In this document: positions 4,588-63,279 of the stretch, piece by piece
Layout: each line of letters begins with the position of its first letter
Position numbering within the stretch: the stretch's first letter is position 1
Origin: Candidatus Tayloriibacteriota bacterium
Lineage (GTDB): Bacteria > Patescibacteriota > Minisyncoccia > Phycocordibacterales > PALSA-1337
DNA length: 64,000 nt
Assembly: GCA_016215455.1 (NCBI GenBank)
Contig: JACRJP010000002.1
Location: 151,622 to 215,621, forward strand
Reading direction: 5' to 3'
Program-made: the position numbers and the translations under genes
Notes under the pieces: generated by a model
Seen by the model: only the letters and a program-made list of their open reading frames with translations
Databases searched by the model: none
What the model was told of the DNA's origin: nothing

Positions 4588-5049
4588 CTAAAAACCAAGC
4601 CAATCAAAGACTTTATGAAGAACTGGCTCAGGGTGTTCTACTTCAGCAATATAGTTGAGTAATACCGAACGCACATCTTCGGGGTGTACATTCAAGAGGG
4701 GAATGACAAGGTAAGGCATAAGTGCCTTGTGAGATTTGATGACAAGCTTTGGAGTGTGATGAAGCACATCAACCCAGAATGATTCGAGTCCTAAAAAGGG
4801 ATAGAGTGTCTTATTAATAATAATCCCACGGTCATTAATCTCACATTCAAGCTTGTTTGGATCACGAGATACTTTGATAACTAAAGCAAAAGCAGAGACA
4901 ATAACAAGAATTCCAAATATTGCATTATCAAAAATAAAAGCGAGTACTGCGATAGTGAGGGTGATGATTCCTACAGCCCAATACCAATCCATGCCGCGGA
5001 CGTAGTCAACATGTTCGGGAGTTTCCCATTGAATCAAAGGTTCAAGCAT
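4588..5049 (-). CDS. Hypothetical membrane protein
   Basis: 153-aa ORF with a hydrophobic helix (WAVGIITLTIAVLAFIF..ILVIVSAFALVI). No recognisable motif. Confidence 0.4.
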   Translation of the reverse strand: MLEPLIQWETPEHVDYVRGMDWYWAVGIITLTIAVLAFIFDNAIFGILVIVSAFALVIKVSRDPNKLECEINDRGIIINKTLYPFLGLESFWVDVLHHTPKLVIKSHKALMPYLVIPLLNVHPEDVRSVLLNYIAEVEHPEPVLHKVFDWLGF

Positions 5050-5664: not shown

Positions 5665-5677
5665 ATGCTTTATTTTG

Positions 5678-5764
5678 CGGATGGGGTGAGATTCGAACTC
5701 ACGGCCCCCTTGCGAGGGCGACAGTTTTCAAGACTGTTCCATTAGACCACTCTGGCACCCATCC
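5678..5764 (-). tRNA. tRNA-Ser, anticodon UGA (class II, long variable arm)
   Basis: Acceptor GGATGGG/CCCATCC. Anticodon stem ACAGT/ACTGT with loop CTTGAAA. Long variable arm CGCCCTCGCAAGGGGGC. T-arm GTGAG-TTCGAAT-CTCAC. Discriminator G; no encoded CCA. Confidence 0.8.
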
Positions 5765-5850
5765 GTGTATGGCCCGTATCATAGCAAAAACGAGCAAAAA
5801 AGCCAACATTTGTGCTATTTTTATTGCCTGCTATACTCGTGGTATTGAAT

Positions 5851-24809: not shown

Positions 24810-24918
24810 GCTCGAGTTGAGCTGTATTTAGCCAGAGTGTATCATTAATCCATATTGTGTGGTACCATGGATGTTACCTGCAAAACGGGGTTAAAAATTA
24901 ATCTAATAAAAGATATTT

Positions 24919-25116
24919 ATGAAGGGTACTATTAAGACATTGAATGAACGAGGTTTTGGTTTCATCGCTCGAGAGGGTGAAGTAAAGGACCTCTTCTTCC
25001 ACTCAAAGAACTTGAATGGTGTTGAATTTGACGCTCTCAAGGTTGGAGATGTTGTTACATTTGAAGTTGTTCAGGGTGAAAAGGGCCCAGCAGCAGAGAA
25101 CGTAGCACGAGCTTAA
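24919..25116 (+). CDS. Cold-shock protein (CspA family)
   Basis: MKGTIKTLNERGFGFI.. with the RNP1 motif GFGFI. 65 aa. Confidence 0.85.
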   Translation: MKGTIKTLNERGFGFIAREGEVKDLFFHSKNLNGVEFDALKVGDVVTFEVVQGEKGPAAENVARA

Positions 25117-25140
25117 ATTAAGCTTCGATATACTTCGAAT

Positions 25141-25170
25141 AAAAAACCATCCTCACGGATGGTTTTTTAT
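25141..25170 (+). terminator. Rho-independent terminator after csp
   Basis: AAAAAA-CCATCC-tcac-GGATGG-TTTTTT. Confidence 0.75.
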
Positions 25171-25194
25171 TGTTGCTTATACTATAGTTAGCCC

Positions 25195-26427: not shown

Positions 26428-27000
26428 TTAATGAATAATGCGCATACCCCAGGAATTAGCCTCAGGGAGGCGTTCTTGGCGAGCAAGTTTAAATTGGTAA
26501 ATAGAAAATAGTATTGTGATAAGTGTTGCGATGAGTTTATAGCTTACCCATGCTTCTGATGTAAGGTGGACTCGGACAACTTCATTACTTACCGCAAGGA
26601 TAGTAAATAGACATGCCCAACGCAATGAAAGTGTTCTCCAGCCCGCATCAGTCATAGCAAATAGAGATCCAAAGAGGGGCTTAAGGAGACCTTTTTTATG
26701 TTTGAGCCCCCAGAATAATATGATTGCAAAAATTCCATTGTAAATAGTGTCTTTGAAGATAATAAAGAATGGATCTTTGAAGATTATTGTAGCTATTCCA
26801 AATACTAGAACAGATATTCCAACAATAAGAGGGAACCAGGCGATTTTTCTTCGTTCAATAAAACCAGCAATGAGAGCAATGATAGTTAGGCCGACAAAAA
26901 TAGTCGTGGCGGTGATGAAATTGATGCGCTCAACAGTCAGAAAGAACACGAGGATTGGTCCAAATTCGATAGATAGACCAAGTAACATTTTTTTGAACAT
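26428..27000 (-). CDS. Polytopic membrane protein (possibly YciB-like septation protein family)
   Basis: 190 aa, 5 TM. Weak resemblance to the YciB N-terminus. Low confidence. Confidence 0.3.
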   Translation of the reverse strand: MFKKMLLGLSIEFGPILVFFLTVERINFITATTIFVGLTIIALIAGFIERRKIAWFPLIVGISVLVFGIATIIFKDPFFIIFKDTIYNGIFAIILFWGLKHKKGLLKPLFGSLFAMTDAGWRTLSLRWACLFTILAVSNEVVRVHLTSEAWVSYKLIATLITILFSIYQFKLARQERLPEANSWGMRIIH

Positions 27001-38158: not shown

Positions 38159-38170
38159 CAAAAGGGTATA

Positions 38171-38199
38171 TTGACGAATTCTGCATAAAGCAGTATACT
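38171..38199 (+). promoter_or_regulatory. Sigma70-like promoter candidate upstream of secE-nusG
   Basis: TTGACG, 17 nt spacer, then TATACT. Confidence 0.35.
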
Positions 38200-38213
38200 T
38201 GTATCAATGCTAA

Positions 38214-38238
38214 ATAAGCCCCTCACGGGGCTTTTTAG
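38214..38238 (+). terminator. Hairpin plus T-tract between SIMPL gene and secE
   Basis: AAGCCCC-tcac-GGGGCTT-TTTT. Confidence 0.5.
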
Positions 38239-38278
38239 TGACAATTTTATTAGTCGGTTACTCAATAAACTTCATACT

Positions 38279-38455
38279 ATGGGAATCACAGAATACATCA
38301 AAGAAACACGTGCTGAAATGAAACATGTTAGTTGGCCAACACGAAAGCAGGCAATCGTCTATTCAGTCATTGTCATCGTTATTTCAGTTGGTATTGCATT
38401 CTTCCTTGGTTTCTTTGACCTCATGTTTACGAAGCTTCTCCGTTTGTTTGCATAA
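38279..38455 (+). CDS. secE: Preprotein translocase subunit SecE (short form)
   Basis: IKETRAEMKHVSWPTRKQAIVYSVIVIVISVGIAFFLGFFD matches the SecE core (KVxWPTR plus one TM). Precedes nusG. Confidence 0.75.
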   Translation: MGITEYIKETRAEMKHVSWPTRKQAIVYSVIVIVISVGIAFFLGFFDLMFTKLLRLFA

Positions 38456-38472
38456 AATTTTCACTATCTATT

Positions 38473-39582: not shown

Positions 39583-40107
39583 TTAAGGAAGATGCTTTAC
39601 TTCAGGTGCTCCTGTATAGCGCACATTATACTCCAACAAAAGTGTACCTGTCGGAGTGGTCTCTGATGATTTTAGTTCAAGGTGAATATTACATGCTTCG
39701 TTAAAGAGTGAAATTCCTTTTCCAAACAAAAGAGGTTCGATCGTGAGATATATTTTCTGTACCACTTGTGCCTTTAGAAACATTGAGTAGATTTGTGAAC
39801 CGCCACAAATAGCTGCTTCAGTCGCCCCTTGTGCTTCAAGTTTTGCAAGAAGGGTATGAGGATCGTCTTGTGTGACAAGGGCACCTTCTAGTGTTTGATG
39901 GGTTCGAGAGTAGACAATATTGGTTCGTTCTTTGAGTGCGCGGGGTAGTGTTTTGTATGTTTGAGAGCCCATAATAACAATACCGGCCTGTCGGGTGAGC
40001 TCAACAAAGCGCTTTTTATCCTCTTTACTTGTCCAGAAAGCTGGGTGATTGCTGTCTTTTGCAATAAAGCCGTCTGCACTTACAGCTGCGATGATAAAAG
40101 TTTTCAT
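39583..40107 (-). CDS. Dihydrofolate reductase family protein (RibD C-terminal-domain type)
   Basis: MKTFIIAAVSADGFIAKDSNHPAFWTSKEDKKRFVELTRQAGIVIMGSQTY matches DHFR/RibD_C fold motifs. Start at the internal ATG. Confidence 0.6.
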   Translation of the reverse strand: MKTFIIAAVSADGFIAKDSNHPAFWTSKEDKKRFVELTRQAGIVIMGSQTYKTLPRALKERTNIVYSRTHQTLEGALVTQDDPHTLLAKLEAQGATEAAICGGSQIYSMFLKAQVVQKIYLTIEPLLFGKGISLFNEACNIHLELKSSETTPTGTLLLEYNVRYTGAPEVKHLP

Positions 40108-40191
40108 AGTAAAGTATAAAATTTTATAGTTGTCATCTATGACGACCCCTTTATGAGGAGTATACTTCATATTGAACATTAAAGAAAACCC

Positions 40192-40872
40192 ATGTCACGT
40201 ACCTATGAAGTAGAAATCAAAAGTTTGTTGGGCTCGAAGGAAAATGCTGATTCTCTTAAAAAAGGATTCATGAAAATGTATCCTACCGCAAAATTGGTAG
40301 GAGAGGAAAAGCAACTCAATCATTATTTCAATGCTCCAAGTGAATTTGCCACACTCAAAACAAATCTTCTTAAAGTCCTCCCTGAGGATAAAAAAGAATC
40401 TCTTGAGTATATTCTTACACAAGGCAAAAAGCTTTCAATTCGAACTCGTGATGCGAATGGAAAAGTACTCGTAGTTATCAAAGCGTCAGTAGGTGATGAT
40501 AGTAGTTCAAATGGTGTGAAGAGAATTGAATTTGAAGCAGTAGTGACAATGACTCTCGGTGAGCTTGATGATCTACTATTGGCTTCAGGATGTTCATACC
40601 AGGCAAAGTGGTCTCGAGAACGAGAAGAATATGAAGCAGGGGATATGCATATGTGCCTTGATAAAAATGCAGGATATGGCTATCTTGCTGAGTTTGAGAA
40701 GGTAACAAATGATGAAGCATCCCTTGATCGAGTCCGAGATGAGTTACTTGCTGTTATGAAGAGTCTGGATGTTGTAGAATTAGCACAGGATAGACTCGAG
40801 CGAATGTTTGCTCACTATAATGCACATTGGGCGGAGTATTACGGAACAGATAAGACATTTAATATAGAATAA
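40192..40872 (+). CDS. CYTH-like (triphosphate tunnel metalloenzyme) domain protein
   Basis: N-terminal YEVEIKSLL carries the ExExK signature of CYTH domains. 226 aa. Tentative call. Confidence 0.35.
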   Translation: MSRTYEVEIKSLLGSKENADSLKKGFMKMYPTAKLVGEEKQLNHYFNAPSEFATLKTNLLKVLPEDKKESLEYILTQGKKLSIRTRDANGKVLVVIKASVGDDSSSNGVKRIEFEAVVTMTLGELDDLLLASGCSYQAKWSREREEYEAGDMHMCLDKNAGYGYLAEFEKVTNDEASLDRVRDELLAVMKSLDVVELAQDRLERMFAHYNAHWAEYYGTDKTFNIE

Positions 40873-40883
40873 TTTCCCACGAC

Positions 40884-41474
40884 ATGTATCTCTCAGATAG
40901 TGATATTAAGAAGGCAGTAAAAAATGGTGATATAGTACTCAGTAATTTTGATGAGACTCGATTGCAACCTGCGAGTTATGACATTATTCTCGGTAATAAG
41001 TTTATTGTTTGGAATACCGAAAAGTCGACAGCGATTGATCCTGTAAATAAGATATTTCCTGAGACAAAGGAACTTATTATCCCTGATGATGGTTTTTTTG
41101 TACTCCATCCAGGTATCAGTATCCTTGGTACATCAGTAGATCATTTCGGTTCTGATAAGTATTTGATCCAATTGTCAGGAAAGAGTAGTCTCGCTCGAAT
41201 TGGTCTCATTGTTCACAATACTGCCGGACTTATCAATCCAGGACATTTCCTTAATATTACATTTGAGCTCTGTAACCTTAACCATATCCCTATCATCCTT
41301 CGCCCTAATATGCGAATTGGACAGATTACCTTCTCACAGCTCACCAATCCTCCAGTAAAGGATTACAAAACAACAGGGAGGTATCATGGGCGAGATTGGC
41401 AACACTTCGTTGACCCTAAGGAGGATGAAAAGAAGAAGGGTAAGAAAGTGATAGCAAAATCAAAGAAGAAATAA
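40884..41474 (+). CDS. dcd: dCTP deaminase (dUTPase superfamily) with Lys-rich C-terminal tail
   Basis: [37 protein letters not shown] matches the Dcd N-terminus. Tail ..[14 protein letters not shown]. Confidence 0.75.
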
Positions 41475-41488
41475 TTTACTCAACTACC

Positions 41489-42535
41489 ATGCCAAAAAAG
41501 ATCCAAAAGAAGGTACAGAAGAAGGTGATAAAAAAGGTACGATCAAAAAGTACAGGACGGCATCCTGAAGAACAATACCTTGATCTTCTAAAGGATATTT
41601 TGAAAAATGGTTTTGAGAAAAAAGAATTTAATACAGGTATAGCAATTAAGAGTGTCTTTGGTCGAATGATGCGATTCGATCTCTCAAAAGGTTTTCCTCT
41701 CCTTACGACAAAAAAGGTATTCATGAAAGGAATTATTCACGAACTCGTATGGTTTCTTCGAGGGGATACTAATATAAAATATCTTGTCGACAACGATGTT
41801 CATATTTGGGATGAATGGCCATATAAGGAATATAAGAAACTCATGGAAGCCGGTACGGTACCAGCTATGACTCAGCAGGAGTTCATCGCAAAGATAAAGG
41901 CGGATGAAAGTTTCTCAAAGAAATATGGTGAACTCGGTCCAGTGTATGGCCGACAGTGGAGACGATGGCCGGCATCTGATGGTCGAGAGATTGATCAGTT
42001 GGCATGGGCGATTGAAAAATCAAAGAAATATCCAGATCGTAAACATGTGGTGATTTCTGCATGGAATCCAGAATATGTATATGAAATGGCAAAACCAGGA
42101 ACATCAATGGCTATTCCTCCATGTCATACAATGTTTAATATCAACGTGACAAATGGAAAACTTTCTCTTTCTTTGTATCAAAGAAGTGCGGATACATTTT
42201 TGGGAGTGCCTTTCAATATCGCTTCATACTCATTGTTGGCGATGGTATTGGCACAGGTATGTGGATACAAAGTGGGGGATTTTGTACACATGTTGGGAGA
42301 CACACATCTTTACGGAAATCATTATGAACAAGCTAAAGAACAGTCAAAGCGAAAGCCACGACCATTTCCTACAGTAAAAATTAATCCAAATCTCAAGAAT
42401 ATTGATGATATTAAGTTCGAAGACTTCGAACTCGTAGGATACGACCCACATCCTCCGATTAAAGGTGAAATTACAGTTGTCGGTGGATTCAATGCGAAGG
42501 ATACAAAGAACTTTACATTTAAAGGTAAAAAATGA
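41489..42535 (+). CDS. thyA: Thymidylate synthase ThyA with Lys-rich N-terminal extension
   Basis: Catalytic [13 protein letters not shown] (PCH motif). FNIASYSLL. 348 aa. N-terminus [18 protein letters not shown]. Confidence 0.9.
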
Positions 42536-42999
42536 GACATACCACCCTTGTTTTCTTGCTGCGCGATAAAGAAATTCTTCTAGCGATGAAGAAACAAGGT
42601 TTTGGTATGGGAAAGATGAATGGAGTAGGGGGTAAGGTAGAACCTGGGGAAGATATTGTTGTAGGCGCTGCACGTGAAGCACAAGAAGAAATAGGTGTAA
42701 CGATTGATGTGTATGATTTGGAAAGAGTTGCTGTTAATACATTTGAATTCCAAGAAAAACCTGAATGGAATCAAGAGTGTCATATTTTCTTTGCTCGAAA
42801 ATGGAAAGGGGAACCAGTTGAATCTGATGAGATGAAACCAGAGTGGATTTCACTTGCTGCTATACCATATGAACATATGTGGGCAGATGATAAGTTCTGG
42901 TTACCGCGAGCTCTTGCGGGTGAGAAATTAAAGGCACACTTTCTCTTTACAAAAGACGGAGTAATGACAGACACATATTCAGTAGAGACTCTCAAGTAA
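42532..42999 (+). CDS. NUDIX hydrolase (MutT-like)
   Basis: Nudix box [24 protein letters not shown]. Confidence 0.7.
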
Positions 43000-43472
43000 T
43001 TTTTATTACTGTACTTGGTGAGTATAATCTCTTGACGAAAAATGAGTTGGTGGTAGCATTCTACAGTGCAGGCAAAGTTTGACCACACACCTGCGCTCCT
43101 CCCCGTTCCTCCGCGGGAAGACGAGGATGGCTCTTCATAAAGAAAAGACGGACGTCACGACACATGGGTTTCAAGTTGGTGTGATCGTGATTAATCACAT
43201 ATTCGAGGATACCTCGAGCGTGCCCTAGTATGTCATGGATCTATCATAGGGGTTATTTGGGCCTTGTTCGACGAGAACCCCGGACCATCTAGGTGTGATT
43301 GTAGTACGGCGTTACCTGGGCTAATCGTGCTTCATCTTCCGTGCTAGTTTTCTTTTACCACCTCGTCATTGAGGCATGGCACCGCTGTAGAGCTCCGTCT
43401 CTCTGCACCGGTGCCTGTTTTTATTTATCCCACATGTTTTCCCTCAAAGAGCCAATATGTTACACTACCGAC

Positions 43473-44654
43473 ATGAAAGACACCCAGATCAAAAAACTGA
43501 TTGATACTGAAAAAAAGCGTCAAAAGAGCGTTATTAACCTCATTGCTTCAGAAAATTATGTATCTCAAGATGTACTTGATGCTTTGGGTTCGGAATTGAC
43601 GAATAAGTATGCTGAAGGGTATTCAGGGGCTCGTTACTATGGAGGAAATGAAATAATCGATAAGGTTGAGGATCTCTGCTGTGAGCGAGCACTCAAGCTT
43701 TTTGATCTTAATGAGAATGAATGGCATATCAATACTCAACCCCTCTCAGGTTCTCCTGCGAATCTTGCGGTATACGTTGGTCTTGTTCCTCAGGGTGCAA
43801 AGATTATGGGAATGTCACTCGATCACGGAGGACATCTTACACACGGTTTTAAGGTTTCTGCTACTGGAAAATTTTGGACACAAGTTCCATATGGAGTACA
43901 AAAAGAAACTGAACTTCTTGATTATGAAGCCCTCAAAAATCTCGCAATAGCAGAAAAGCCTGCCATTATTGTCGCAGGATATACTGCGTATCCTCGAAAG
44001 GTTGATTGGAAAAAGTTTAGAGAAATTGCAGATGCAAGTGGCGCACTCCTCATGGTCGACATGTCGCACCTTGGGGGACTTGTTGCGGGTAAGGTATATC
44101 CATCACCATTTCCATATGCTGATATTGTGACTACAACAACGCATAAGACACTCCGAGGTCCAAGAGGTGCACTTATATTTGTTCGTAAGGATGAACGAGG
44201 TCTTGATAAGAAAATAGATAAAGCTGTTTTTCCAGGTCTTCAGGGTGGTCCACACATGAACCAAACAGCAGCAATTGCTGTAGCTCTTAAGGAAGCTTCA
44301 ACCCCAGCTTTCAAAAAGTATGCCGGTCAAATTTTAAAAAATGCTACTGCGTTAGCAGCTGAACTTTCGAAGCGTGGTTGGAGAATTGTTTCTGGTGGTA
44401 CGGATTCTCATTTGATCCTCGTTGATACATGGATGAATGGCGCGGGTATTTCTGGAAAAGAAGCGAGTGATCGTCTTGAAGCTGCTGGAATTATTGTGAA
44501 CAAAAATACTATCCCATTTGATTCTCGATCACCAGTGGATCCTTCAGGAATTCGCCTTGGAACTGCCGCAGAAACTACTCGCGGAAAGAAAGAAAAAGAT
44601 TTTAAGAAAATTGCAGAAAAGATTGATCAAGTTTTGAATGCTAAGAAGAAGTAA
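43473..44654 (+). CDS. glyA: Serine hydroxymethyltransferase
   Basis: LIASENYVSQDVLDALGSELTNKYAEGY. PLP-lysine region TTTTHKTLRGPRG. Start at the internal ATG; the ORF-track 5' extension at 43341 is unsupported. Confidence 0.9.
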   Translation: MKDTQIKKLIDTEKKRQKSVINLIASENYVSQDVLDALGSELTNKYAEGYSGARYYGGNEIIDKVEDLCCERALKLFDLNENEWHINTQPLSGSPANLAVYVGLVPQGAKIMGMSLDHGGHLTHGFKVSATGKFWTQVPYGVQKETELLDYEALKNLAIAEKPAIIVAGYTAYPRKVDWKKFREIADASGALLMVDMSHLGGLVAGKVYPSPFPYADIVTTTTHKTLRGPRGALIFVRKDERGLDKKIDKAVFPGLQGGPHMNQTAAIAVALKEASTPAFKKYAGQILKNATALAAELSKRGWRIVSGGTDSHLILVDTWMNGAGISGKEASDRLEAAGIIVNKNTIPFDSRSPVDPSGIRLGTAAETTRGKKEKDFKKIAEKIDQVLNAKKK

Positions 44655-44670
44655 TATCTAGTTTTATCTA

Positions 44671-46344
44671 ATGATTAGTGATCTTACACCAACACAATTT
44701 AATGACCTCGCCGAGATTCTCTTTCCTGATGTTAAAGAAGGAGTTGATGCATACGAAGCAAAATTTCCTGAAAGAAATATCGATGGTGCTCCAGTAACTC
44801 GATTTTGTCCAAGTCCAACAGGTGTAATGCACATTGGTGGAGTTTTTGCTGCACTTATTTCAGATCGTATAGCGCACGCACATCCAAAAGGTGTATTTTA
44901 TTTGCGCATAGAAGATACTGATCAGGGACGAAAAATAGAAGAAGCATACGATGGAATCTATTCTGCAATGCGAAGTTTTGATGTACAGGTCAATGAAGGA
45001 ATTGATGGAAAGGGGAGCTATGGTCCGTACGTGCAATCAGAAAGACTTGATATCTATCGAGCCTTTACTAAAGAGTTGGTTCGATTAGGTCATGCATATC
45101 CATGTTTTTCTACTCCTGAAGAACTTGATGAAATTCGTAAGAAACAAGAGGCTCTTAAACTTCGACCAGGATATTATGGAACATGGGCAGTTGGTCGAAA
45201 GAATTCTTTTGCTGATATTACAAAAAATATTTCTGAAAAAAAGCCGTACGTTATTCGACTTCTTTCACGTGGTTCAGATAAGAATCAGAGAAAGTATAAT
45301 GATCTCATTAAGGGCGAAATTACGGTAACTGAAAATGATCAGGACAGTGTTCTCATTAAGTCTGACGGTTTTCCTACGTATCACTTAGCACATGTTGTTG
45401 ATGATCATTTAATGAAGACGACACTTGTGTTGCGAGGGGATGAATGGGTATCTTCACTTCCACTTCATCTTGAGCTCTTTGCGGCATTCGGTTGGAGTGT
45501 TCCTTCGTATGCGCATATTGCACCAATCTTAAAGCAAGATGGAGTTGGACGACGTAAACTTAGTAAGAGAAAAGATCCTGAAGCAGCAGTGAGTTACTAT
45601 GTTGATCAGGGGTACCCTACAGATGCTGTAATTGAGTATCTTCTTAATATCGCAAATTCTGACTTTGAACCATGGAGAGCTGCAAATCTCATATTGCCAA
45701 ATTCTAAGTTTCCTTTACGTCTTGAAAAGATGAGTAAGAGTGGAGCGTTGTTTGATCTCAAGAAACTTGATGATGTGAGTAAAAATATTGTTGGTCGAAT
45801 GAGTGCTGATGAAGTCTATCAACATGTTCGAGTATGGTCACAAACTCGTGATACAGAACTACATGATCTTTTTGGTAAAGATGAGGTATATACACGTGCG
45901 GTACTTAACATTGAAAGAGGTGGAACAACGACTCGTAAAGATATTGGAAAATGGAACGATGTTCGTGAAGCAGTTGGATATTTCTTTGATGATGTATATG
46001 CTGATCTAAAAAGTAAGCTTGATATAGCTACAACTCTTCCTGCGAGCGTAACAGTCGAACAGTGTAAAGCTTTATTATCTGAATACGCGGGAGTGTATGA
46101 TGCAAACCTTGATAAAGTTACTTGGTTTGAAAAATTAAAAGAATTTGCCGGAGCTCACGGGTTTGCGAAGGATACAAAAGAGTTTAAGGCTGATCCGAGT
46201 AAGTTTAAGGGGTCAGTAGGGGATATTGCAATGCTACTTCGACTTGCTCTGACAACAAAGACAAAAACGCCTGATCTTCATGAAACAATGAAGGTTATGG
46301 GTGTTGATCGAGTCAGTGCACGTCTCAAAGGGTTTATTGCGTAA
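44671..46344 (+). CDS. gltX: Glutamyl-tRNA synthetase
   Basis: RFCPSPTGVMHIGG (HIGH) and KLSKRK (KMSKS). 557 aa. Confidence 0.85.
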   Translation: MISDLTPTQFNDLAEILFPDVKEGVDAYEAKFPERNIDGAPVTRFCPSPTGVMHIGGVFAALISDRIAHAHPKGVFYLRIEDTDQGRKIEEAYDGIYSAMRSFDVQVNEGIDGKGSYGPYVQSERLDIYRAFTKELVRLGHAYPCFSTPEELDEIRKKQEALKLRPGYYGTWAVGRKNSFADITKNISEKKPYVIRLLSRGSDKNQRKYNDLIKGEITVTENDQDSVLIKSDGFPTYHLAHVVDDHLMKTTLVLRGDEWVSSLPLHLELFAAFGWSVPSYAHIAPILKQDGVGRRKLSKRKDPEAAVSYYVDQGYPTDAVIEYLLNIANSDFEPWRAANLILPNSKFPLRLEKMSKSGALFDLKKLDDVSKNIVGRMSADEVYQHVRVWSQTRDTELHDLFGKDEVYTRAVLNIERGGTTTRKDIGKWNDVREAVGYFFDDVYADLKSKLDIATTLPASVTVEQCKALLSEYAGVYDANLDKVTWFEKLKEFAGAHGFAKDTKEFKADPSKFKGSVGDIAMLLRLALTTKTKTPDLHETMKVMGVDRVSARLKGFIA

Positions 46345-62936: not shown

Positions 62937-62967
62937 ATCTAAGCAATTATTAAGTTAATTATTCAAT

Positions 62968-63180
62968 ATGGCACAAGCAGCTAAACAGTGTTACTTTTCA
63001 AAAAACAATATTAAGCAAATTGACTATAAGGATACTGAAATTCTCAAGAAATTCATTAACCCTCACGGTCGTATGATTAGTCGAAAGAAGACTGGTGTAA
63101 GTGCTCGAAGTCAGCGACAGTTGGCAACAGCTATCAAGCGAGCTCGATATATCGGTTTACTTCCGTTCGTAACTCGTTAA
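62968..63180 (+). CDS. rpsR: 30S ribosomal protein S18
   Basis: ..KFINPHGRMISRKKTGVSARSQRQLATAIKRARYIGLLPF. Confidence 0.9.
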   Translation: MAQAAKQCYFSKNNIKQIDYKDTEILKKFINPHGRMISRKKTGVSARSQRQLATAIKRARYIGLLPFVTR

Positions 63181-63201
63181 TCAAGAGAAGTTTAAACAAA
63201 A

Positions 63202-63266
63202 GAAAAACCGTTTCACTGTACTCAAAAGGCACATTTGCCTACGAGAATACTTTGAAACGGTTTTTC
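63202..63266. terminator. Bidirectional terminator between rpsR (+) and efp (-)
   Basis: Perfect 13-bp inverted repeat GAAAAACCGTTTC ... GAAACGGTTTTTC flanked by A/T runs. Confidence 0.6.
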
Positions 63267-63279
63267 TTTTGTTCAGATA

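Follow-up and report, generated by a model that had tools for sequence, protein, structure and literature searches.

Structured RNA elements that precede genes of folate and one-carbon metabolism, glyA among them, are known from other phyla in the form of the ZTP (pfl, RF01750), THF-I (RF01831) and THF-II riboswitches, which use a terminator as expression platform. For ZTP, the pfl model comprises two sub-domains joined by a pseudoknot, with the cores GGGUCGUGAC... and ...CCGCCUGGGC. Structured RNAs have also been described as products of stand-alone small RNA (sRNA) genes or as parts of 3′ untranslated regions (UTRs). GcvB employs a G/U-rich seed to target C/A-rich initiation regions, and its expression is tied to glycine metabolism; 6S RNA and Ms1, the latter ~300 nucleotides (nt) long, bind RNA polymerase and evolve fast in sequence. 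Large non-coding RNA (ncRNA) classes have been discovered by searching compact, AT-rich genomes for long intergenic regions of high GC content (PMC8723152, PMC11109978). Here, a region of this kind is described in a DNA stretch of 64,000 nt (the window) from Candidatus Taylorbacteria, a lineage of the Paceibacteria/Parcubacteria within the candidate phyla radiation (CPR), whose genomes are very small and tightly packed and whose regulatory RNAs are almost undescribed. It occupies the 473-nt gap at 43000-43472 between a MutT-like NUDIX hydrolase gene and glyA, the gene for serine hydroxymethyltransferase (SHMT). Literature searches on CPR ncRNAs and on sRNAs with DnaA boxes yielded no prior description.

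The gap most likely holds an independent gene on the plus strand for a structured ncRNA of ~360 nt that matches no Rfam family, a reading that we prefer without holding it firmly. An initial annotation of this DNA had placed a structured ncRNA in the gap, bounded by the NUDIX stop codon at 42999 and the glyA ATG at 43473, with raised GC content and without a convincing open reading frame (ORF); these statements hold, as do the strand-specific folding and the conservation set out below. The longest ORF comprises at most 49 codons, has no Pfam match and lacks similarity to translated relatives. A six-frame tblastn search against 160 related loci returned noise only, and neither this search nor Pfam revealed the degraded ORF that the initial annotation had named as an argument against its own proposal. 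The GC content amounts to 0.607 over 43060-43120, 0.508 over 43060-43425 and 0.478 over the entire gap, compared with 0.398 for the window; among intergenic stretches longer than 120 nt in the window, only the 147-nt gap at 5665-5811, mostly a tRNA gene, is richer in GC. The region folds better than dinucleotide shuffles, and it does so strand-specifically: the plus strand including the terminator (43055-43430) reaches z = -3.15, with none of 100 shuffles as stable, and the body alone (43066-43370) z = -2.23, as against -2.24 and -0.95 for the minus strand. Transcription would start near 43066, about 7 nt after a sigma-70-type promoter-like site of the form TTGACG-16-TGgTAGCAT. The RNA is predicted to fold into two 5′ hairpins followed by a multi-branched domain closed by long-range helices, and it would be released at an intrinsic terminator whose 14-bp stem (-23.9 kcal/mol) is followed by the U-tract UGUUUUUAUUU. 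This terminator was overlooked by a simple stem-loop scan because its stem is imperfect, with an internal mismatch on each arm, and falls outside the scan criteria. Neither the promoter-like site nor the terminator had been listed by the initial annotation, and the same applies to the extended -10 element in front of the glyA ATG (Table 1).

Further evidence is provided by a second strain, L162 (Logan run SRR21713533), which differs at 28 positions in 2652 nt (98.9% identity). In the flanking genes, 18 synonymous differences were counted in 484 synonymous sites (dS 0.037), together with 5 non-synonymous ones. The 366 nt of the RNA carry a single change, T43229C, where 13.6 would be expected at the synonymous rate (Poisson P ~2e-5, assuming a uniform rate). 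By this substitution, the G.U pair predicted between G43222 and U43229 (probability 0.82) becomes G-C. Differences resume at 43426-43433, and the 47-nt spacer behind the terminator contains 4 of them. This single comparison, made against a background of patchy divergence, points to purifying selection on the sequence or the structure of the RNA. A conserved, structured RNA of 360 nt residing in one of the largest non-coding gaps of the 64 kb is unlikely to be idle. The patchiness itself is apparent over 42349-45000: 13 differences cluster in the final 290 nt of the NUDIX gene, and none occurs in the end of thyA, the start of gltX or the promoter. Such a distribution suggests recombination tracts between the strains.

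The organism appears to use leaderless mRNAs for promoter-proximal genes, which would be translated without Shine-Dalgarno sites. A TAnnnT peak is located exactly 6 nt before the start codon in 13 of the 70 ORFs of the window, against a background of ~2 per position, and a Shine-Dalgarno-like tetramer 4-10 nt upstream of the start was found for one of the 70. Starts that exemplify the leaderless arrangement include those of 4588-5049 (minus strand), 13004, 17871, 25195, 26428-27000 (minus strand), 27022 and 43473. The latter is that of glyA, which fits the pattern: it would be transcribed separately and without a leader from the extended -10 element that ends 6 nt before its ATG. A TGnTAnAAT element in the same position is also present in relatives, where the DNA further upstream is variable. 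Since a terminator and this leaderless-type promoter of glyA both lie between the element and the gene, the element would not be part of the primary glyA mRNA; it would either be transcribed as a unit of its own or form the end of the upstream operon's transcript, outside the glyA 5′ UTR.

For comparison, 80 genome loci and 80 metagenome loci containing glyA were collected (160 in total; 168 with later additions), all of them from Parcubacteria/Paceibacterota and referred to below by L numbers. Most relatives possess only 0-100 nt upstream of glyA, and in 20 of the 80 species-level loci the same place is taken up by 200 nt or more of non-coding DNA. In about 20 loci, a promoter module was recognized in which one to three tandem copies of TGTGGATAA, at 11-nt spacing, abut or overlap TTGACA or TTGCAT, followed 12 nt after this -35 element by AGGAGTAnnnT; all 22 regular-expression matches of the module in 1.1 Mb lie on the strand of glyA. 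The repeated unit is identical to the DnaA-box consensus, TTATCCACA. Between ~60 and ~560 nt are transcribed, in every case up to a terminator with a long stem, which is often preceded by a G/U-rich tract; the leaderless promoter of glyA then follows. Almost no sequence is common to these cassettes, and k-mer enrichment inside the RNAs retrieved little besides terminator and U-rich words. Structure-preserving changes are nevertheless evident within groups of close relatives. In the L010 and L102 RNAs (86% identical), 10 predicted pairs are changed on both sides and none is broken among the pairs aligned in both, and the L075, L126 and L057 RNAs share compensatory hairpins, a near-invariant block of 100 nt and 1-2-nt indels that exclude a coding function. 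These five are large structured RNAs (330-560 nt) without an Rfam match, and the near-invariant block of the L075 group contains a C/D-box-like or K-turn-like motif pair, AUGAUGA...CUGA.

Inspection by eye revealed a recurrent core in 16 of the relatives' elements, in which an A-rich strand is followed by a helix of 6-12 bp, variable in sequence, that closes 40-150 nt, and then by YY-AUUUC; single-sequence folding predicts it in 14 of the 16 core segments. A strict descriptor (A-rich strand, helix of at least 6 bp closing 40-140 nt, 0-3 nt, AUUU), which was designed after viewing the data, identifies 9 of 25 elements, compared with 0.6 ± 0.8 (maximum 3) in 200 dinucleotide shuffles. At the lower end of the size range, minimal cassettes of 60-100 nt consist of the promoter, ~35 nt of G/U-rich RNA (e.g., UUGGUGGUUGGUUGGGG) and the terminator, directly before the leaderless glyA promoter, and presumably resemble seed-type sRNAs such as GcvB. 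L164 and L165, which like the window carry a NUDIX gene before glyA (53% identity for the NUDIX of L164), harbor a short 75-nt version without boxes, in which the conserved promoter places a consensus -35 directly after the upstream stop codon.

The unit in the window shares the layout of these cassettes: a promoter-like site, the predicted RNA and the terminator are arranged on the strand of glyA directly upstream of its leaderless-type promoter. The degenerate DnaA-box-like 9-mer TGAGTATAA is found where relatives carry the proximal box; the window contains no perfect DnaA box, and scans with position weight matrices leave the box at 43019-43027 non-significant. The only sequence seen to be shared is the 5′ 9-mer CAGTGCAGG of the window RNA, which recurs in the RNA of L066. 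L012, the locus with the most similar thyA (83%), has the same dcd-thyA-gap-glyA order with a 325-nt member in the gap and lacks a NUDIX gene. Under a relaxed reading of the core, to which the above statistics do not apply, AAAGAAAAG/UUUUCUUUU together with ACGGA (43148-43152) and UCCGU (43338-43342) resemble the AAAACCGGA...UCCGGU-UCA-AUUUCUCUG arrangement of L126. Homology of the window RNA to the relatives' cassettes is plausible but unproven. It is possible, albeit doubtful, that the window RNA represents a highly diverged local member of an undescribed, fast-evolving family of structured Paceibacteria ncRNAs of 60 to ~560 nt, which are driven by promoters with tandem DnaA boxes beside thymidylate-cycle genes (thyA, dcd, tmk, NUDIX, glyA) and would tie the supply of thymidine monophosphate (dTMP) and one-carbon units or, via the G/U-rich tract, leaderless or Shine-Dalgarno-less translation to the state of the replication initiator.

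With regard to function, the RNA in the window would not serve as the 5′ leader of glyA; it may act in trans or as a protein-binding or scaffold RNA tied to the cluster of folA, dcd, thyA, NUDIX and glyA. If it is a homologue of the relatives' cassettes, the ancestral RNA would have been under the control of the replication initiator. Coupling of replication status to thymidylate and one-carbon supply is suggested because the association with dTMP-cycle genes is constant and relatives carry DnaA boxes. Should the link to these cassettes hold, the locus would specify a regulatory RNA controlled by DnaA, among the earliest descriptions of a large ncRNA specific to a lineage of these ultra-small bacteria, and RNA synthesis set by DnaA within the thymidylate cluster would constitute a new tie between the supply of DNA precursors and replication.

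Several observations weigh against an independent ncRNA gene. The proposed gene is a prediction from sequence, and read-through of the terminator into glyA may occur. The promoter-like site has 9 of 12 matches plus the TG, and sites of this quality are found in the region at chance level (~3 per 1.5 kb). Promoter matrices derived from 20 relatives placed the site 324th when spacers were fixed and 40th when they were flexible, neither of which is significant. We credit it on account of its location, at the 5′ border of the conserved and structured GC-rich block, and of the strongly conserved promoter that occupies this place in relatives. No homologue of the window RNA was found among the 168 related loci by blastn (word size 7), nhmmer or profile search, and the strict core descriptor finds no match in it. 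Comparative support for the window's own fold consists of one substitution in one other strain. The Poisson probability is optimistic, and the argument built on it weakened, because divergence is patchy and synonymous changes are absent from the end of thyA and the start of gltX. Finally, no terminator follows the NUDIX stop codon, so that the same RNA could be the 3′ UTR of a dcd-thyA-NUDIX transcript. As to the failure to find homologues, a search of 5.8 billion proteins showed that, outside the species itself, the closest glyA product has only 81% identity, and relatives with 79-81% glyA identity lack the element. Seven further contigs obtained by exact protein look-up comprised one strain variant and no other homologue, and a profile built from the 3′ regions of 16 relatives' RNAs gave no match at the window element.

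The initial annotation had gone on to suggest that the region is a ZTP or THF riboswitch controlling glyA. A cis-acting leader of this type, whether riboswitch or attenuator, would allow a ligand or factor of one-carbon or dTMP metabolism to promote read-through of the terminator and thereby supplement glyA's own promoter. Several features speak for such control: the element lies on the same strand immediately upstream of glyA, its terminator ends only 45 nt before the ATG, many relatives have a cassette in the same position relative to glyA, and operon-internal genes in this organism are translated without Shine-Dalgarno sites, so that a read-through glyA message would be translatable. However, the Rfam scan that the initial annotation had proposed matched no family in the region on either strand, whether the window was scanned at the gathering score or 42900-43600 at E<=10. 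With permissive filters at E<=10, ZTP, THF-I/II, glycine, SAM, T-box, 6S, RNase P, tmRNA and SRP were all absent from both strands; ARAGORN detected no tmRNA in the region, and the loci of 22 relatives yielded nothing relevant even at E<=10. The CC-UGGGC element, taken by the initial annotation as reminiscent of the ZTP 3′ subdomain, is an isolated 7-mer at 43315-43321 without a match to the pfl covariance model, and the THF-I and THF-II models likewise find no match. The element extends for ~300 nt before its terminator, several times the size of the ZTP and THF aptamers, and no core is conserved across relatives. With blastn and nhmmer, the glyA upstream region matched none of the 160 glyA loci. 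The leaderless-type promoter of glyA sits downstream of the terminator, most relatives lack any upstream element, and where cassettes exist their length varies between ~60 and 560 nt and hardly any sequence is shared, which is not what a conserved ligand pocket would show. The sole candidate for an anti-terminator, UCUACAG (43060-43066) pairing with CUGUAGA (43385-43391), is for the most part situated before the predicted transcription start and was dropped. Control of glyA as a leader is therefore rather unlikely. What the initial annotation had seen is a real feature, read too specifically; the most fitting description is that of an orphan gene for a structured ncRNA. GC-rich structured DNA before glyA need not signify a riboswitch, and in a genome with leaderless mRNAs the logic of 5′-UTR riboswitches is largely inapplicable.

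It is similarly unlikely, and to our mind a shade less credible, that the region represents a long structured 3′ UTR with the terminator of the dcd-thyA-NUDIX operon. The promoter-like site would then be a chance match, and the RNA would be an mRNA tail or a processed fragment that stabilizes the message or insulates the glyA promoter. No terminator is found between the NUDIX stop at 42999 and 43371, the promoter match is statistically undistinctive, and a terminator directly before a promoter is a common insulating arrangement. On the other hand, 370 nt of GC-rich, conserved and structured sequence far exceed the needs of a terminator, given that the gaps between genes in this genome mostly measure less than 100 nt. 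The relatives' promoter, which is strongly conserved and has its consensus -35 immediately behind the upstream stop codon (L164, L165 and 20 others), and the equivalent thyA-glyA cassette of L012, which has no NUDIX gene, also argue for a transcription unit of its own.

Non-functional DNA, be it a decayed gene, an insertion remnant or the scar of a mobile element, is a very unlikely explanation. In its favour, the region has no counterpart by sequence and is missing from relatives with 79-81% glyA identity. It has, however, acquired ~14-fold fewer substitutions than the neutral expectation, its single change keeps the predicted pair, and neither translated similarity nor a second copy in the window was found; decaying DNA in AT-rich genomes drifts to AT, in contrast to the GC content well above the genome average seen here. 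A small protein gene is hardly credible: a leaderless ORF of 25 codons could begin at GTG 43066 (MQAKFDHTPALLPVPPREDEDGSS), exactly 6 nt after the -10 element and thus at the spacing from TAnnnT of the genome's leaderless starts, or an ATG ORF of 33 codons at 43127, but no Pfam or translated similarity supports them, the 25-codon ORF falls within two GC-rich hairpins and accounts for only 75 of 366 conserved nt, and the relatives' cassettes lack a consistent ORF at the start site and contain 1-2-nt indels in their most conserved blocks. A repeat or miniature inverted-repeat transposable element was ruled out by self-comparison, which found the region to be single-copy within the window. A replication origin, brought to mind by the relatives' DnaA boxes, was ruled out by the GC skew, which is flat and positive over all 64 kb; read as the box-to-DnaA-trio core of an origin, the relatives' boxes have the wrong orientation, and the apparent trios (TAG GAG TAG) are the -10 region at 17-nt spacing. 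Likenesses by eye to RNase P (AAACCGCCG, AAGGGUG) and to a T-box (UGGCACCGC; GCGGUACC in relatives) were dropped for want of model support.

Among described RNAs, stand-alone or 3′-UTR-embedded sRNA genes resemble the proposed ncRNA gene in general layout, namely a promoter, a structured RNA and a terminator hairpin with a U-tail, directly after a coding stop. The G/U-rich tract just 5′ of the terminator in relatives and the adjacent gene of glycine/serine metabolism recall GcvB. In contrast to these sRNAs, the window RNA matches neither GcvB nor any other sRNA family of Rfam, is longer and more branched than seed-type sRNAs, and has a U-rich rather than G/U-rich tract before its terminator (GU fraction 0.57). 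A duplex-energy scan for targets among the 5′ ends of the 70 window genes, the output of which is not trustworthy, showed no outlier among the neighbours. OLE, ROOL, GOLLD, the raiA motif and HEARO share the signature of a GC-rich gap and a multi-helix architecture with the window RNA, and the relatives' versions, with up to ~560 nt and compensatory changes, are also large. Nonetheless, none of the covariance models of these RNAs matches, and the host lineage is a different one, Paceibacteria of the CPR. Moreover, these classes keep sequence cores across genera, whereas the window RNA is undetectable by sequence at ~80% glyA identity. 6S RNA and Ms1 would be similar in the type of promoter, that of an abundant RNA, in poor conservation of sequence with kept position and structure, and in size; no Rfam 6S match was obtained at E<=10, and the predicted fold is multi-branched rather than a long rod with a central bubble. 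T-box leaders likewise extend for ~300 nt before a terminator, and the 5′ arm of the terminator contains UGGCACCGC (43377-43385), which is loosely similar to the T-box sequence UGGNACCGC. In this case, too, the T-box model (RF00230), which comprises Stem I with its specifier loop and an antiterminator bearing the 14-nt T-box sequence, finds no match on either strand at E<=10 or in relatives, no Stem I or specifier features were recognized, and glyA has a separate promoter.

The palindromes and hairpins listed by the initial annotation are all present, but every internal coordinate was given 10 nt too low; the positions in Table 1 are the true ones. The perfect 12-nt palindrome GTGATTAATCAC is mildly unusual, with a chance expectation of ~0.1 per 470 nt. 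When the RNA is folded in silico, the two halves find their partners elsewhere, at 43153-43158 and 43295-43300, and not in each other.

Table 1. Features of the region upstream of glyA and of the corresponding loci in relatives (window positions, unless a locus number is given)
Feature	Position	Strand	Sequence, basis or remark
Predicted ncRNA, ~360 nt	43066-43428	+	start placed 7 nt after the -10 element; end at the terminator U-tract
Promoter-like site, sigma-70-type	43032-43059	+	-35 TTGACG 43032-43037; 16-nt spacer; extended -10 TGgTAGCAT 43051-43059
Degenerate DnaA-box-like 9-mer	43019-43027	+	TGAGTATAA; agrees with TGTGGATAA at 7 of 9 positions; 4 nt before the -35; weak alone
Predicted 5′ hairpin	43066-43096	+	GUGCAGG (43066-43072) / CCUGCGC (43090-43096); minimum free energy (MFE) and centroid structures
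Predicted second hairpin	43102-43117	+	CCCGU-UCCUCC-GCGGG; predicted folds
Predicted long-range closing helices around ~200-nt multi-branched domain	43120-43367	+	in both MFE and centroid structures
Predicted closing helix 1	43120-43130 / 43358-43367	+	GACGAGG-A-UGG / CCA-C-CUCGUC
Predicted closing helix 2	43139-43146 / ~43348-43355	+	AAAGAAAA / UUUUCUUU
Predicted hairpin with the sole strain difference within the RNA	43218-43233	+	GCGUGC-CCUA-GUAUGU
Predicted intrinsic terminator	43371-43428	+	stem GGCACCG.CUGUAGAG / CUCUGCA.CGGUGCC 43378-43415, then UGUUUUUAUUUAU
Putative glyA promoter	43458-43466	+	extended -10 TG-t-TACACT, 6 nt (ACCGAC), ATG; predicts a leaderless glyA mRNA
Perfect 12-nt palindrome	43187-43198	strandless	GTGATTAATCAC; self-hit; preceded by GTGATC 43181-43186; given as 43177-43188 in the initial annotation
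TCGAGG-ATA-CCTCGA	43203-43217		sequence
GACGTC	43151-43156		sequence
GGGGTT...AACCCC	43249-43282		sequence
ACCTGGGCT	43314-43322		sequence
NUDIX hydrolase gene (MutT-like), upstream neighbour, last of the dcd-thyA-NUDIX run	42532-42999	+	ORF; Pfam NUDIX E = 6e-15
glyA (SHMT), downstream neighbour	43473-44654	+	ORF; product 100% identical to an NCBI protein from a Candidatus Taylorbacteria metagenome-assembled genome
Promoter module with DnaA boxes in relatives, examples	L030:2482-2523; L066:3631-3683; L075:1005-1057; L153:1798-1850; L010:3420-3482; ~15 others	strand of glyA	
Aligned promoter of relatives L014 and L031			TGTGTATAAC-TAGC-TTGCAT
Large structured RNAs in relatives	L010:3483-3968; L102:1893-2450; L075:1058-1410; L126:2103-2440; L057:3631-3960		
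Minimal cassettes in relatives	L164:2360-2475; L165:1354-1460; L027:3797-3936; L133:2292-2390		
Promoter-like sites over the glyA stop codon in relatives	L012:3676-3712; L073:5218; L051:5182; L002:5170; L129:3775; L102:3688; L092:3670		

The gene order around the gap is folA (minus strand), CYTH, dcd, thyA, NUDIX, the gap itself, glyA and gltX (GluRS). Within the window, further gaps of more than 300 nt without a tRNA gene or Rfam match are located at 24810-25194, 38159-38472 and 62937-63279; their GC content of 0.35-0.39 is at or below the genome average. A literature search combining "leaderless" with Parcubacteria found no paper that links the two.

In the window (39583-44654) as well as in L163, L164, L165, L167 and L168, glyA resides within a variable thymidylate-cycle cluster made up of folA, dcd or dCMP deaminase or dUTPase, thyA, tmk, NUDIX and glyA, the content and order of which are shuffled between genera. 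Two of the enzymes encoded in the window bear basic tails, which are unusual for metabolic enzymes: ThyA has a lysine-rich N-terminal extension of ~30 amino acids (41489-41580) and Dcd a lysine-rich C-terminal tail (41420-41474). In several genera, a conserved promoter-like TTGACA-17-TAGTAT sequence is embedded in the final codons of glyA (..IDKILKGE*) and overlaps the stop codon; it is presumably the promoter of the next gene.

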